A stretch of DNA of 64,000 bases from an uncultured Christensenella sp. (GTDB lineage Bacteria; Bacillota; Clostridia; Christensenellales; CAG-917), in contig CAJTYG010000002.1 of the NCBI GenBank assembly GCA_910584155.1, positions 141,381-205,380 of the forward strand, given 5' to 3'. Shown piece by piece: positions 5,706 to 63,699 of this stretch. The position numbers and the translations under genes were made by a program. The notes beneath the pieces are model-generated. The model saw only the letters and a program-made list of their open reading frames with translations. It did no database searches and was not told the origin of the DNA. Positions within the stretch are counted from its first letter, which is position 1. Each line of letters begins with the position of its first letter.

Positions 5706-6017
5706 TCACAGATACTTGTCAATAATTTCTGCAAGCTGACTCTTTGCCCTGAAGCCGACAAGCCTCTCTTTGATTTCGCCGTCCTTAAAAATAAACACGG
5801 TCGGGATAGAAAATACGCCGAATTTTTGAGCGATATTGGGATAATCGTCAACGTCGACCTTGCCTACGGTCACCTTTCCGTCATAGTCGTGGCTAAGCTC
5901 CTCTATGATAGGCGCAAGCATTTTGCAGGGCGAGCACCACGTAGCCCAGAAATCGACCACGGCAACGCCGCTCGATACTGTTTCGTCAAAATTTTCCGAT
6001 GATAAAATTTTTGCCAT
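5706..6017 (-). CDS. trxA: thioredoxin (active site WCSPC)
   Basis: ATG at 6017 has an AAGGAG RBS 7 nt upstream. VVDFWATWCSPCKMLAP and the FKDGE region fit the thioredoxin fold. Confidence 0.9.
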   Translation of the reverse strand: MAKILSSENFDETVSSGVAVVDFWATWCSPCKMLAPIIEELSHDYDGKVTVGKVDVDDYPNIAQKFGVFSIPTVFIFKDGEIKERLVGFRAKSQLAEIIDKYL

Positions 6018-48840: not shown

Positions 48841-49032
48841 AAAATAAAAACGGCACACTCTGCAAAACACGGCGCTGCGTGTCCTCTCAAAGTATGCCAC
48901 TTAGCGGACATACTTCTACACCCTTGCCCATAAGGCTTGGGAAATTATGCCCAGACGGTCGACAAGACATCAAGTCTTTATATTCCGCCTGCTCCACGTG
49001 GTTATCCACTTATCCGTCAGTCACAGGCGGTT
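48841..49032 (-). promoter_or_regulatory. ZTP (pfl-motif) riboswitch with intrinsic terminator, leader of the pur operon
   Basis: Minus strand 5' subdomain: CCGCCUGUGACUGACGGAUAAGUGGAUAACCACGUGGAGCAGGCGG (48985-49030). Compare the T. carboxydivorans ZTP aptamer GGGUCGUGACUGGCGAACAGGUGGGAAACCACCGGGGAGCGACCC. A linker is followed by the 3' element GACCGUCUGGGCA (48948-48960). A long hairpin GGCAUACUUU...AGAGUGUGCC followed by GUUUUUAUUUU occupies 48841-48898. Confidence 0.8.
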
Positions 49033-49067
49033 TTGCTATAATTTTATATCCCCAAAAGGATATTTGT

Positions 49068-59144: not shown

Positions 59145-59200
59145 TGGTGCCGCTGACCGGAGTCGAACCGGTACGATATTTCTACCGAGGGATTTTAAGT
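59145..59200 (-). pseudogene. 3' fragment of tRNA-Leu(UAA) (anticodon loop to CCA), putative att-site remnant
   Basis: Minus strand: ACUUAAAAUCCCU-CGGUAGAAAUAUCG-UA-CCGGUUCGACUCCGG-U-CAGCGGC-ACCA. These parts are the anticodon loop with UAA, a variable arm with a GAAA loop, the T arm, the acceptor 3' strand, and an encoded CCA. The 5' half (acceptor 5' strand, D arm) is absent from the adjacent sequence. Confidence 0.75.
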
Positions 59201-59410: not shown

Positions 59411-60775
59411 ATGACAGATGATTGCGTAAAAGAGTTTATACATAAAATTGTTGAAGGCGATTTAGCTAAAACGGAATTGGAAATTAGAGATAGTAAGTTG
59501 CCGCACATCAATTTGCCACTCTATAAATATTGTGCGGTATGTGAAGACTCAAAACGAACACAAGATACCATAGACTACAATATAGATAATTTTGAAAACG
59601 ACGTTTTATACTTTCAAAATCCTGCAAACTTTAATGATCCATTTGATTGTTTTCTTGGCTTCTCACAATCTCAAATAGTTAAAGATTTATTAGCCCAAGA
59701 ATTAAGAAAAAAGCATCAATATACTCCCCAGAACAAACAGACTATCGACTCATTATTTGAGTATACAGGAAATATACAAGAAATAATAGATAATAACTAT
59801 GATAGTGTTATAGAAATAATTGAAGCCGCATTCGAAATAATGGAGTCAGATGATCCATTTCAAAAATTTGCACAAGAACTCGTTGTTTCTTTGGCTAAGA
59901 CTGATCAAAAATTATTTCAAAGAATAATAAATAATAAAATTACAATTATGGACAAAAAACATATAATAGACCTGTTTTTTGATAATCAGCAATTTCAAGA
60001 TTTATTAATCCAATCAATCGAATCTCATGATACTAACCTAATTGAAATAACACGTCGTGAAATGAAATTAAAGATTGAGAACGATCCTAATTTTTTGTAT
60101 TTTGAAAATGAAGATAGTGACTTCTCTATTCTATCATTTATATTCAATATAGCTTCATTTTTACATCCTGAACAAAAATCCAATGTTGAGTTAGATAATT
60201 TGAAATCGCAATTTGATAAATTATCAAAAGCAGCTTTGAATAAAGTCCGCCAAATCATATCCGAAACATTTAAAGTGACTTGTTTAAGCGAAAGAATGGA
60301 TTCGCCTTTAATGTGGTCTCACTATGCAAATAAACATTATGGATTTTGTCTTGAATACGATTTTACGTCCACTATAACTAATATACATAACGATTTATTA
60401 CTTGCACAGTTGATGCTATTTCCTGTTCATTATTCTAATGACAGACCTCTTATATCAAAAACATTTTTTAATACAAAAGCTAAACTTAATTACATAAAAC
60501 ACAAACAACTGCCACCACGTGCCATAGATGAACTAGTTTACGGTCTCTTGGGTAAGAGCTTGGACTGGGAATATGAGAAGGAATGGAGAATCTTTCAGTT
60601 AGGCGGTAAAGAAACAATGAAATTGCCAAAACCACAAAAATTGTTTCTTGGGGCAAATATTGAGGAAGCAGCTAAGCAACGCCTTATTAAAATAGCCAAA
60701 GGAAAGAAAATCCCTGTTTTTCAAATGTGTCTAAAACCTGACAACTATCAGTTCGACTATTATAGAATAGATTAA
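59411..60775 (+). CDS. DUF2971-family protein
   Basis: ATG at 59411 with a TGGAGA RBS. The hallmark SPLMWSHYANKHYGFCLEYDF and a later EKEWRIF match DUF2971. 454 aa. Confidence 0.75.
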   Translation: MTDDCVKEFIHKIVEGDLAKTELEIRDSKLPHINLPLYKYCAVCEDSKRTQDTIDYNIDNFENDVLYFQNPANFNDPFDCFLGFSQSQIVKDLLAQELRKKHQYTPQNKQTIDSLFEYTGNIQEIIDNNYDSVIEIIEAAFEIMESDDPFQKFAQELVVSLAKTDQKLFQRIINNKITIMDKKHIIDLFFDNQQFQDLLIQSIESHDTNLIEITRREMKLKIENDPNFLYFENEDSDFSILSFIFNIASFLHPEQKSNVELDNLKSQFDKLSKAALNKVRQIISETFKVTCLSERMDSPLMWSHYANKHYGFCLEYDFTSTITNIHNDLLLAQLMLFPVHYSNDRPLISKTFFNTKAKLNYIKHKQLPPRAIDELVYGLLGKSLDWEYEKEWRIFQLGGKETMKLPKPQKLFLGANIEEAAKQRLIKIAKGKKIPVFQMCLKPDNYQFDYYRID

Positions 60776-60859: not shown

Positions 60860-61771
60860 ATGCCAAAGAAATTGTCGCCGCAAGCATTAATTGCATTAAA
60901 AGATGCTTTAATCGTTATTTATTGGAAGAAAACCGATCTAAGGTTATTTATAGAAAATAGTTTTGAAGATGTAGAAAAAGGTAGAAAGTTCTGTGCAACT
61001 TTGGATTTTAGCAATACCAAATATGTTATAGTTAATGAAGTTGTTGACAGAATGTATAAAAGACCTGATCTTTACAATAATGACCTAGTAAGTTTGTGTT
61101 ATAATACTTGCAATATGAATGATTTTAGTCATTTATTGATTTGGGATAATGGGAAAGAAAAAGCAAAAATAGCAAAAGAAAAAGTTGCAATATTGCAACA
61201 ACAATGTAAAGGATATTTTGATCTACAAGAAGAGCGAAAACTGGCAGAAAAAAGAAAACAAGAATATAATAAAGTTCAAGATACAATGAATGAACGAAAG
61301 CAACTAATTCAAAGTCTTAAAGACGAATTTAATGATGTAATTAGCAAAGATGAACAAGCACGTGGATATGCATTTGAAAAATTTCTAAACCATATTTTTG
61401 CTCATTATGATTTAGCTCCACGTGGTTCTTTTAAGACAAACGGTGAGCAAATAGACGGAGCATTTACACATAACTCTACTGACTATTTATTGGAGGCTAA
61501 GTGGCAAACAAAACTAATTTCCCTATCTGACTTATATATTTTTCAAGGCAAAATAGATTCTAAACTAAAAAATACAATTGGACTTTATGTGTCTTTTAAT
61601 GGGTACTCTAACGAAGTATTAGAAAATTTTCAAGCAAAAGCAATAATTCTTGTTGATGGACAAGATCTATGTCAAATATTAGAAGATAGAATTTCACTGC
61701 CCGATATGATAGAAGCTAAAAGAAAAGAAGCAGCTACCACAGGCAATGTAATGTATAGAATTAATTGTTAA
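60860..61771 (+). CDS. restriction-endonuclease-like (Mrr_cat, PD-(D/E)xK) protein with N-terminal unknown domain and central coiled coil
   Basis: 303 aa. AGGAG RBS. The C-terminal RGYAFEKFLNHIFAHYDL...GEQIDGAF...DYLLEAKWQ (D...ExK) matches the Mrr catalytic core. A K/E/Q-rich helical segment spans aa ~95-160. Confidence 0.75.
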   Translation: MPKKLSPQALIALKDALIVIYWKKTDLRLFIENSFEDVEKGRKFCATLDFSNTKYVIVNEVVDRMYKRPDLYNNDLVSLCYNTCNMNDFSHLLIWDNGKEKAKIAKEKVAILQQQCKGYFDLQEERKLAEKRKQEYNKVQDTMNERKQLIQSLKDEFNDVISKDEQARGYAFEKFLNHIFAHYDLAPRGSFKTNGEQIDGAFTHNSTDYLLEAKWQTKLISLSDLYIFQGKIDSKLKNTIGLYVSFNGYSNEVLENFQAKAIILVDGQDLCQILEDRISLPDMIEAKRKEAATTGNVMYRINC

Positions 61772-61783
61772 ATCCGCAATCTT

Positions 61784-61815
61784 AAATTAAGAGCCATACA
61801 AGGCTCTTTAATTTT
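61784..61815 (+). terminator. terminator-like hairpin after the nuclease gene
   Basis: AAGAGCC (61789-61795) / GGCTCTT (61802-61808), extended by A/T pairs and followed by TAATTTT. Confidence 0.55.
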
Positions 61816-61864
61816 ACACTACTCTGTCGATTTTGGTCGATATTTTTTCTATTGTCATAATTTA

Positions 61865-61893
61865 TTGAATTTTCATTTTTTATATGTTAGAAT
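61865..61893 (+). promoter_or_regulatory. promoter of candidate small RNA
   Basis: TTGAAT (61865-61870), 17 nt, then TAGAAT (61888-61893). Confidence 0.5.
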
Positions 61894-61899
61894 AAGCGT

Positions 61900-62057
61900 G
61901 CGACGTAACTTAATATTTTTTATTCCTAAAAGAGCCAAATCTTCATTTGGCAATTCTTGCTTAGCCTGAATTTTCTCTTTTAGGAAGAAAGTTACGTCGC
62001 AAACACGGGCGAAGCATGGTTGTAGTGCGTCGCCTATGGCGGCGCACTTTTTGTTTT
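61900..62057 (+). ncRNA. candidate structured small RNA (~155 nt) with its own promoter and terminator
   Basis: Outer stem TGCGACGTAACT (61899-61910) / AGTTACGTCGCA (61990-62001). Inner stem TTCCTAAAAGAG (61923-61934) / CTCTTTTAGGAA (61975-61986). Apical hairpin CCAAAT-CTTC-ATTTGG (61935-61950). A strong terminator follows: AGTGCGTCGCC-TAT-GGCGGCGCACT then TTTTGTTTT (62024-62057). No credible ORF. Confidence 0.5.
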
Positions 62058-62110
62058 ATTAGCATATTCTGCACTGCCACATTATAAAATCATACAAACT
62101 GTATAATATC

Positions 62111-62140
62111 TTGACATTATTGTGCGGAATGTGCTATATT
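62111..62140 (+). promoter_or_regulatory. promoter of the downstream lipoprotein gene
   Basis: TTGACA (62111-62116), 18 nt, then an extended -10 TGcTATATT (-10 hexamer 62135-62140). Confidence 0.55.
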
Positions 62141-62157
62141 GTCAACAAGGAGGAAAT

Positions 62158-63699
62158 ATGATAAAACAATCGCAAAATGCGAGTTTAGAAGTTGCTAAAA
62201 GGTTTTTCAAAAAGCTTCTCAAATGTGGAACAATCGGTGCAACGGGCTTTATAATGCTTGTAAATTTTACGTCTTGCAACAAGCCAACACAAAAACCGAG
62301 CGAAACTCCAAATCCAAAGCCACCTATTGAGCAACCGGACGATCCAACACCTATTGAAAAATCAATTAGCATAGATAAAATTTATAATGATAATTTTGCA
62401 GGCACTTCTTTTGCAGCAGATATATTAGCGGCACAAAATGCACTTGCAAATAGAGTTTTTGATAATCTAACCCCACAAATCGCAAATATTACATATGACG
62501 AAGGCACAAAACAATTGACCTTTGAAATCAACTACGTTGAAGACAACAAAGCTAAATCAGGTTCAATGACATTTACTGCTCCTGCGTTTTTCCAACAAAT
62601 AAGAGGAAAACAAGCGAAGGCACTGATTCTTGAATACGCTGAACTTTTAGCCAATAGCGAAGTCAAAGAAAGCAGCGTTGACGAAATAACCGCAAAAATT
62701 GAAAAAGCAATCGATGACATTGCCGAACAAATTGCAACGAGCTTTGCTGCCGTAAAAACTAACAACATAATCGTAGAAAAAGAGCAAGACCCTATCCCAG
62801 TTGAAACAATCTCTTTTGACGAGCTTATTGCAGACGAACTTGGCGACTATTTAGGCAATATTGCATTATTGCAAGAGCCAAGTAAACAAGCGATACAACA
62901 AAATAACCCAAGAGACCAGATTTTAGACGATTTTAAGATAGCCATTGAAAATAATGAATTGGTTTTCTACTATAATCTTACTATTGGAACTACTTCAACT
63001 GTTGATAAGAGATTGACTGCTTCTACATATAAAGGCTCTGCTAATGAGTTTGAAGATTTAATAAGAATTGCTACCGATCCACAAGCTCTCTTAAACGCAT
63101 ATTTTACAAATTCACAACAAAATAATATGGCTATTGAGCTTAATAGTGAAGAATATCGTGCAATTTTATCCATTTGTCAAACCATTCTTAGCAATGTTAG
63201 TGAGCAATCGGATAAATTGTCTGAATTAAACTACAAAAACTTTACAAACAAAGAGCTTGCCCGTCACAACAACGAGCTTAGTCAAGAAGAAGCATTGAAG
63301 TTTGCTACTAAACTGGGCTACGCTGAGGACGAAGTGCTTGGTGTGTATGTTGGTAAAAGTGGCAATCGTGGTTTTGATGAAACTTTTGGAACGGGATATT
63401 GCAATTCTTTCACTTTATCTGTGCTATCAAAGGACTACCACCTATACACTTGTGTGGTATATGTACCTCACTATTCCGATTCTACTCAAGCAGATTATTA
63501 TCGCTATTTTCTTAAAGGCGAAAACGGCAAACAACGCCATGAATTAAAAAATGAAACTACAACTGTGATTAACGGAATAATTGTTGATTTCGCAGATAAA
63601 GACTCAATAGCACAAAACTTATATGCAAAATACGCAAGTATAAATGATTTAGACTACTATTTGCCATTAAATTTGATTTTAGATATTTTGCCTCGATAA
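62158..63699 (+). CDS. hypothetical lipoprotein
   Basis: ATG at 62158 with an AAGGAGG RBS. Signal sequence with lipobox-like VNFTSC, followed by a P/T/K-rich linker. No recognised domain. Confidence 0.7.
   Translation: MIKQSQNASLEVAKRFFKKLLKCGTIGATGFIMLVNFTSCNKPTQKPSETPNPKPPIEQPDDPTPIEKSISIDKIYNDNFAGTSFAADILAAQNALANRVFDNLTPQIANITYDEGTKQLTFEINYVEDNKAKSGSMTFTAPAFFQQIRGKQAKALILEYAELLANSEVKESSVDEITAKIEKAIDDIAEQIATSFAAVKTNNIIVEKEQDPIPVETISFDELIADELGDYLGNIALLQEPSKQAIQQNNPRDQILDDFKIAIENNELVFYYNLTIGTTSTVDKRLTASTYKGSANEFEDLIRIATDPQALLNAYFTNSQQNNMAIELNSEEYRAILSICQTILSNVSEQSDKLSELNYKNFTNKELARHNNELSQEEALKFATKLGYAEDEVLGVYVGKSGNRGFDETFGTGYCNSFTLSVLSKDYHLYTCVVYVPHYSDSTQADYYRYFLKGENGKQRHELKNETTTVINGIIVDFADKDSIAQNLYAKYASINDLDYYLPLNLILDILPR

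Follow-up and report, generated by a model that had tools for sequence, protein, structure and literature searches.

Following up a prediction that had been made from the sequence alone, we analyzed a 64,000-nucleotide (nt) stretch of DNA from an uncultured Christensenella sp. (contig CAJTYG010000002.1; below, the window), in which a promoter-to-terminator unit at positions 61865–62057 of the plus strand lies between a gene for an Mrr-like nuclease and a gene for a predicted lipoprotein. We found that this unit belongs to an RNA family that is absent from Rfam and occurs in Clostridia of the gut and rumen. Our findings support the view that the unit is a real, selected promoter-to-terminator RNA, and that it is neither a coding region nor a member of a repeat family. 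As to its function, we propose, with confidence that is about evenly balanced, that it is a promoter-proximal transcription attenuator, i.e. a 5' leader RNA, whose long hairpin would act as an anti-antiterminator.

The hairpin that makes up most of the unit consists of three helices, P1, P2, and P3. The original prediction had described two perfect helices of 12 base pairs (bp), and both were confirmed. The outer one, P1, seen in the sequence, in folding, and as an inverted repeat, extends to 13 nt with 100% complementarity (5' strand UGCGACGUAACUU at 61899–61911, 3' strand at 61989–62001), and the inner one, P2, is a perfect 12 bp in sequence (61923–61934 with 61975–61986). The apical hairpin is likewise present (P3, 61934–61951); G61934 can alternatively close it in folding, which leaves P2 with 11 bp and P3 with 7 bp. 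The domain from 61923 to 61986 comprises P2 (61923–61933/4 with 61975/6–61986) around P3, together with a 23-nt joining segment on the 3' side (61952–61974), and it is separated from P1 by an asymmetric, A/U-rich internal loop that folding places on the 5' side (61912–61922). The minimum free energy (MFE) of the plus strand is -62.3 kcal/mol, compared to -38.2 ± 3.9 kcal/mol for 200 dinucleotide shuffles, none of which folded as well (z = -6.1), and the four units that were tested against shuffles gave z values from -5.7 to -9.1. The minus strand folds equally well (z = -7.5), so the window copy by itself cannot tell which strand matters. In 11 out of 11 homologous units that precede a small open reading frame (ORF; these small-ORF units are described below), the promoter-sense strand is the more stable one by 2–15 kcal/mol, and it carries 2–6 G·U pairs as opposed to 0–2 on the other strand. 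This strand bias argues for a structure formed by plus-strand RNA.

The original prediction had seen no plausible ORF in the unit, and our ORF check upholds this. A coding reading was rejected on its own grounds: in the window and in the related locus L008, an ATG in the linker opens a frame that runs through the terminator, and the length and spacing of the T tract differ among close relatives, so the frame is not kept. The P1 and P2 12-mers have no second copy in the window, except for one chance match with 1 mismatch.

Upstream of the hairpin, the promoter that had been predicted as TTGAAT-17-TAGAAT is found at 61865–61893. Read directly in the sequence, it is of the sigma-70 type with a TG ahead of the -10 element (TTGAAT-17-TGtTAGAAT), and it is identical in L226, a homologous locus discussed below. 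From its position, transcription would start at approximately 61898–61900, which would put P1 at the extreme 5' end of the RNA. Its counterpart in 16 small-ORF units, identified by pattern search, is TTGACG-17-TATCAT/TAATAT. Directly read between 61826 and 61859 are two GTCGAT boxes spaced with a 10-bp period (61826–61831 and 61836–61841) and a GTCATA box (61854–61859) just 5' of the -35 element. These boxes are identical in L226 save for one base beside the third box, and a TTTTGTCGAA box is found in all small-ORF units at an equivalent distance from the -35 element. The upstream boxes are possible binding sites for a transcription factor or other regulator.

Downstream of the hairpin, a linker (62002–62024) leads into an intrinsic terminator (62024–62057). 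The 11-bp GC-rich terminator claimed originally is borne out by the sequence: its stem, GUGCGUCGCC-UAU-GGCGGCGCAC, forms 11 pairs at 62024–62048 (8 G-C and 1 G·U) around a loop of 3 and is followed by the U tract TTTTTGTTTT. Folding reveals an alternative, extended antiterminator hairpin at 61995–62044 that excludes both the base of P1 and the terminator. Specifically, CGUCGC in the 3' strand of P1 (61995–62000) is able to pair with GCGGCG in the 3' arm of the terminator (62039–62044), CA (62004–62005) with UG (62037–62038), and the two linker elements that form the 5' strand of the antiterminator core, GGGCGA (62007–62012) and GCAU (62014–62017), with UCGCCU (62030–62035) and GUGC (62025–62028), respectively. 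An A·G mismatch lies below the last of these helices, and the loop is GGUUGUA. This antiterminator is the MFE structure of the isolated 3' domain (-24.5 kcal/mol), and in the whole window RNA the fold that contains it lies 2.7 kcal/mol above the fold with P1 and the terminator.

Comparison with L226 shows which parts of the unit are constrained. The DNA homology between the two loci starts at 61822, past the nuclease gene, and extends at 75–78% identity across the unit, the lipoprotein gene, and the gene that follows. In L226, the unit lies directly upstream of P0242, which shares 66% amino acid (aa) identity with the window lipoprotein, and the genes upstream of the unit differ from those in the window. 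The unit is therefore part of the lipoprotein operon rather than a companion of the Mrr-like nuclease. Ahead of P1, approximately five differences are found in 77 nt. Past the hairpin, 62003–62006 differ, the linker is identical from GGGCGA (62007) on, and only two differences are found from there through the terminator and spacer to the TTGACA -35 element of the lipoprotein promoter. Within 62058–62157, L226 departs from the window only at 62069, in the spacer of the TTGACA promoter, and at some positions around the ribosome-binding site, although the lipoprotein itself is only 66% identical. Between these flanks, the 103-nt hairpin of the window and the 84-nt hairpin of L226 cannot be aligned and nevertheless share their architecture: the L226 hairpin (z = -5.7) has a P1 of UGCGCUACAUUU/AAAUGUAGCGCA, an 8-nt 5' loop, a 10-bp P2, a P3 hairpin, and a joining segment.

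An Infernal/Rfam scan and a homologue search with a covariation test had been suggested as checks in the original prediction, and both were run. No catalogued family fits the unit: at gathering thresholds, the 4227 covariance models of Rfam 15 gave a single match in the whole window, a ZTP riboswitch at 48942–49034, and at E <= 10 the region 61700–62200 gave only chance-level matches, the best of which scored 18.4 bits against a threshold of 44. The same models found nothing at the unit in nine homologous loci and in L082. The homologue search yielded 18 further distinct units in Oscillospirales-type metagenome-assembled genomes (MAGs) and metagenomes, and some of their helix pairs covary. The window unit itself recurs identically in five other loci (MAG GCA_949935765.1 and related assemblies). 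When a genome collection was scanned with the P1 arms, 2 of the 11 matches were real relatives, one on each of the genome records of L008 and L009 (an Oscillospiraceae MAG and an Acutalibacteraceae MAG), which have the same order of parts as the window and a different interior; the other 9 were due to chance. Further loci were reached by walking outward, initially from the neighbouring LuxS gene and subsequently from a conserved 40-aa ORF. A pattern search recovered 17 distinct units including that of the window, and L083 and L226 were recognized separately. The 10 matches of a metagenome scan with the P1 arms were chance palindromes or coding sequence that has no promoter and terminator, and BLAST against plasmids and phages gave no match. 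Three scans of viral contigs (with the P1 arms, the post-terminator box, and the promoter box) found no family member, and thus no sign of carriage by phages. A full-text literature search with the accessions and the small-ORF motif returned no papers.

The order of parts in the family is a TTGTCGAA-like box, the TTGACG-17-TATCAT/TAATAT promoter with its TG, a long hairpin that begins 5–7 nt past the -10 element, a linker of 22–25 nt, and the terminator. In the terminator, the base GUGCG...CGCAC is invariant, a U tract is found in all units, and the upper stem covaries. The hairpin comes in two types. Type A, of approximately 105 nt, has the base UGCGAC.../...GUCGCA, and type B, of approximately 150 nt, has the base UGCCAAA.../...UUUGGCG and a three-way junction. 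Of P1, the family retains only the basal UGCG...CGCA, and in the distal P1 of type A, three pairs show five double-sided changes each. All type A units, and L226 as well, have a 5' internal loop of 5–12 nt whose sequence is not conserved, and the arrangement of P2, P3, and joining segment recurs with unrelated sequence in L226, L008, L027, L078, and L088. For type B, 15 out of 56 pairs covary, with six double-sided compensatory changes between L068 and L069 and eight between L068 and L082. The exchange of one type for the other can be seen directly in L088 (1770–1940) and L095 (735–946). These two strains are near-identical: for more than 200 nt to either side, their flanks match at approximately 99%, and the 40-aa protein encoded there does not differ between them. 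One strain carries a type A and the other a type B cassette over the whole transcribed part, from the -10 element through the terminator. The allelic dimorphism is restricted to this transcribed leader.

Across four unrelated genomic contexts, each member of the family is immediately followed by a co-oriented gene. The window and all 18 homologous units thus show the generic layout of an attenuator, a promoter followed by an intrinsic terminator followed by a co-oriented gene. The second generic feature, an antiterminator that excludes the terminator, is kept computationally across the homologues, in registers that vary. Column-wise covariation of the antiterminator can be counted only in type B (n = 5), and the type A units, whose MAFFT columns and registers differ, were instead judged by shuffle, two-state, and swap tests. 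The linker together with the 5' half of the terminator folds better than shuffled linkers in every lineage, with the fraction of shuffles that were at least as good between 0.002 and 0.14 (0.018 for the window). When linkers and terminators were swapped, none of the ten combinations outperformed the cognate one in the window, L008, L027, and L082. The two whole-RNA states are separated by -6 to +7 kcal/mol, depending on the family member. The RNAalifold consensus of the five type B units is the antiterminator and not the terminator; in the alignment, pairing extends to all terminator cells (100%) and to 94.7% of the antiterminator cells, compared to 26–52% for slid partners, and column 196, which belongs to the terminator, covaries with both of its alternative partners.

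We propose that the sigma-70-type promoter would start the RNA at the foot of the very stable P1–P2–P3 hairpin, and that the linker and the 3' strand of P1, by their predicted complementarity to the terminator (its 5' arm, its loop, and the greater part of its 3' arm), would offer the transcript two fates. With P1 fully formed, the terminator would fold, transcription would stop, and an RNA of approximately 155 nt would be released. With the base of P1 frayed or held open, the antiterminator of approximately 50 nt would form, and the polymerase would read into the downstream gene, that is, the lipoprotein operon in the window and the 40-aa helical protein in 17 other units. P1 would serve as the anti-antiterminator by sequestering the base of the antiterminator, and termination would probably be the default. 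Candidates for opening or blocking P1 may include a protein, an RNA acting in trans, or the choice of start site. Read-through would add to the transcription that comes from the lipoprotein operon's own promoters.

Several points weigh against this proposal. The start site, the termination, and the read-through are all things that we infer. The terminator is strong, and P1 is a perfect 13-bp helix with no visible mechanism for opening. Nor is read-through needed to express the lipoprotein gene, which has its own near-consensus promoter, conserved in L226. It is also important to point out that the antiterminator register differs between sub-lineages, that the type B covariation score was reached by 26–42 out of 500 shuffles, and that the shuffle tests per lineage are not independent, given that the lineages are related. 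Finally, the hairpins of the window and L226 have perfect Watson-Crick arms with 0–1 G·U pairs and fold equally well on both strands.

A more far-reaching version of the attenuator, which we regard as speculative and improbable, would have the hypervariable hairpin confer specificity. A dedicated partner acting in trans would open each allele; this partner could be a co-evolving protein or an RNA that enters by way of the A/U-rich loop, as in a toehold switch, and the opening would release the 3' strand of P1 for the antiterminator. The unit would then be a natural strand-displacement attenuator with an exchangeable cassette, and types A and B would be kept by diversifying or balancing selection. 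For a trans target or trigger in the window, a linker duplex scan and short-word BLAST gave only chance-level matches.

Among the alternatives to an attenuator, the one that survives best, though we consider it unlikely, is that the unit encodes a stand-alone small RNA (sRNA) of approximately 155 nt that acts in trans through its conserved single-stranded linker or by binding a protein, with the adjacent gene a mere neighbour. The original prediction had argued similarly for an independent transcript rather than a leader. The promoter of the lipoprotein gene on which it relied is real, and this, together with the unit's own promoter and strong terminator, would fit an sRNA, as would the identity of the linker from GGGCGA on in L226 and the fact that the window unit is fully intact though it lacks the 40-aa ORF typical of the family. 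Moreover, terminated leaders act as sRNAs in other bacteria, such as SreA in Listeria. The claim of independence is nonetheless doubtful, given that all members precede a co-oriented gene and that the antiterminator is conserved. The linker, too, speaks against an sRNA: in the 64-kb window it finds no target above chance (the best duplex has -26.5 kcal/mol, compared to -24 to -31 kcal/mol for shuffled linkers), it is not conserved in the family, and its changes track those in the loop and arm of the terminator that it precedes, a covariation for which a seed acting in trans would have no use. The hairpin has no conserved sequence at all.

Less probable still is a structural 5' element that does not switch, either a stabilizer or insulator (a 5' stem-loop against 5'-dependent RNases) or a leaky terminator that sets a fixed level, with the complementarity between linker and terminator incidental. 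The hairpin does sit at the predicted 5' end, its sequence is unconstrained beyond pairing, and it has no conserved loop resembling a ligand pocket. However, a three-helix hairpin of approximately 100 nt with a conserved architecture exceeds the needs of a 5' stabilizer, the antiterminator is kept in every lineage as the best match to its cognate terminator, and the two folds are nearly isoenergetic.

We consider it very unlikely that the element works as a palindrome in the DNA (as a recombination site, an attC-like site, a remnant of a miniature inverted-repeat transposable element (MITE), or a cruciform) and that the RNA features are incidental. The near-absence of G·U pairs and the equal folding of both strands in the window and L226 would suit such a palindrome, as would the behaviour of the hairpin as a replaceable cassette between conserved flanks, and the GTAAC/GTTAC motifs in P1 are reminiscent of attC core sites. 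Against this, the G·U pairs favour the transcribed strand in 11 out of 11 other units, and promoter, linker, and terminator are conserved around the hairpin. The palindrome is single-copy in the window and in each locus, no recombinase adjoins it, GTAAC/GTTAC is absent from L226 and L027, and the breakpoint with L226 is at 61822 and not at the palindrome. Two specific candidates of this kind were rejected: a MITE or a repeat of the repetitive extragenic palindromic (REP) type, because the element is single-copy in the 64-kb window and the 5.7 kb beyond it and the genome scan gave one match on each of the L008 and L009 records, and an integron attC, because GTAAC/GTTAC occurs in the window and L008 and is missing from L226 and L027, with no integrase among the neighbours.

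The suggestion of the original prediction that the RNA is antitoxin-like and tied to the adjacent nuclease is contradicted: its only footing is adjacency to the Mrr_cat gene (60860–61771), the nuclease adjoins none of the 18 homologous units, including that of L226, where the unit has stayed together with the lipoprotein gene and the one after it, complementarity to the nuclease gene is limited to chance matches of 9–10 nt, and we found no toxin ORF, no antisense partner, and no ToxI-type tandem repeats. Related candidates were rejected as well. A type I toxin-antitoxin system is at odds with the lack of a plausible ORF in or beside the unit and with the 40-aa ORF of the family, which encodes an acidic protein predicted to be a soluble helix and is absent from the window; a type III (ToxI-like) system fails because 61500–62400 contains no tandem repeats; and for a retron RNA, the only Pfam domains encoded by the neighbours are DUF2971 and Mrr_cat (the lipoprotein has none), and no reverse transcriptase occurs in the homologous loci.

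The attenuator that we propose most resembles the terminator/antiterminator/anti-antiterminator attenuators and riboswitch platforms of Firmicutes, with which it shares a promoter-proximal intrinsic terminator, a co-oriented downstream gene, an exclusive antiterminator that uses the 5' arm of the terminator, and a P1 3' strand that is common to P1 and the antiterminator. It differs from them in having neither a leader peptide nor a conserved ligand-binding core, and in a 'sensor' hairpin that is hypervariable and swapped as a cassette. Provided that pairing is kept, the hairpin tolerates changes of sequence, and hence there is no conserved metabolite pocket; a generic metabolite riboswitch was rejected because the hairpin cannot be aligned between the window and L226 despite near-identical flanks and because the type A loops are not conserved. 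T-boxes (RF00230) similarly combine a long 5' hairpin with internal loops, a linker, competing antiterminator and terminator, and a specificity element that varies between copies. Unlike them, the unit gives no RF00230 match at E <= 10 and has no 7-nt UGGN bulge, K-turn, or specifier-loop motifs, its antiterminator has only an A·G mismatch and a 7-nt loop with no sequence conservation across lineages, and its downstream genes encode a lipoprotein or a 40-aa helix instead of amino-acid functions. By analogy with the ribonucleic antiterminator (RAT) sites of BglG/LicT and with ANTAR sites, in which a weak, mismatch-bearing antiterminator overlaps the 5' arm of the terminator, a protein could stabilize the antiterminator; we know of no RAT or ANTAR signature in the unit and no cognate regulator gene nearby. 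As in terminated leaders that double as sRNAs (SreA/SreB and Rli55/EutX), a promoter, a structured RNA, and a terminator ahead of a gene would yield an abundant short transcript, but those leaders come from known riboswitch classes, which the unit does not match, and it has no trans target in the window. Engineered toehold switches offer a further analogy, in that they have a long hairpin with a single-stranded loop and an arbitrary sequence, and opening the hairpin would free a sequence that changes expression; these synthetic devices work at the level of translation and respond to a defined trigger RNA, whereas no trigger for the unit was found in the window.

The downstream gene in the window (62158–63699, plus strand) is co-oriented and encodes a predicted lipoprotein of 513 aa with no Pfam domain, the conserved partner of the unit in this lineage. 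The spacer in front of it (62058–62157) contains TGTATAAT (62100–62107), a perfect extended -10 element, the TTGACA-18-TGcTATATT promoter (62111–62140), which had been correctly assigned to the lipoprotein gene and is conserved in L226, and an AGGAGG ribosome-binding site. We also observed that TTGACA (62111–62116) and TGTCAA (62140–62145) form an inverted pair that gives a minus-strand promoter score directed back into the RNA unit. Approximately 5 kb past the 3' end of the window (L004 12501–13542), one of the genes that follow the lipoprotein operon encodes a polymorphic-toxin-type protein with PT-HINT and LHH nuclease domains.

In 17 units, a ribosome-binding site and an ORF of 40–42 aa (MPDY..LLDGVEKA..ACE.IY.DT) follow approximately 60 nt after the terminator. 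The small-ORF units have no consistent strong promoter between terminator and ORF, a point in favour of attenuation. The encoded proteins form an acidic family of 112 clusters (for example, L008 1135–1260 and L027 3437–3559; P0121–P0232) that has no Pfam or NCBIfam entry and no homologue in the window (tblastn), and the 40-aa protein is predicted to be a single soluble helix (pLDDT 89.5). The family always follows an RNA unit, save for the most distant member examined. This relative, P0232 (54 aa; L048 2700–3165), has no RNA unit and is preceded by a perfect 16-bp palindrome before its ribosome-binding site and by a divergent 61-aa gene. The 17 small-ORF modules occupy three housekeeping contexts (LuxS-EamA, RsmF, and rubredoxin-acetyltransferase), each of which can carry either hairpin type. 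LuxS-EamA is the one context in which an empty site was seen, with the module absent in some relatives and a gap of only 133 nt. There, related genomes (L030–L037 compared to L027/L058/L088) differ in whether a whole module of approximately 480 bp (promoter, RNA, small ORF, and terminator) separates the LuxS terminator from the EamA promoter, with no obvious flanking repeats.

The island location claimed originally holds, given that the unit lies in an AT-rich, island-like part of the window with 27–37% GC from 56 kb on, compared to approximately 48% before. Within this AT-rich stretch, at 59146–59200 (minus strand), the reverse complement ...ACCGGUUCGACUCCGGUCAGCGGCACCA reads as a T-arm, an acceptor 3' strand, and CCA. 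It is 80% conserved in L226 (1794–1850), ARAGORN called no tRNA there, and it looks like a 3' fragment of a tRNA or transfer-messenger RNA gene, the kind of repeat that would mark an integration site. A DUF2971 protein (59411–60775, plus strand) matches the PADLOC candidate defence family PDC-S31 (E = 2.9e-47). By their position, flanked by the tRNA-like fragment on one side and the conserved RNA-lipoprotein module on the other, the DUF2971 and Mrr_cat nuclease genes read as variable cargo, and L226 has other genes there. Elsewhere in the window, the ZMP/ZTP (pfl) riboswitch (48942–49034, minus strand; 60 bits) closely follows the formate-tetrahydrofolate ligase gene and precedes the next minus-strand genes, and L008 has a second ZTP riboswitch at 5885–5969.

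If our proposal is correct, the unit would represent an uncatalogued attenuator family in little-studied Clostridia of the gut and rumen. Its design would be unusual, with a near-invariant frame of promoter, linker, and terminator around an anti-antiterminator hairpin that is constrained only to pair and is replaced wholesale between near-identical strains. It would also provide a test case for how an attenuator can respond when neither a leader peptide nor a tRNA nor a ligand pocket is there to trigger it. For annotation, the unit should be attached to the lipoprotein operon and not to the nuclease. Overall, our analysis flags two targets that may be regulated in this way, the island-borne lipoprotein operon and the 40-aa single-helix family.

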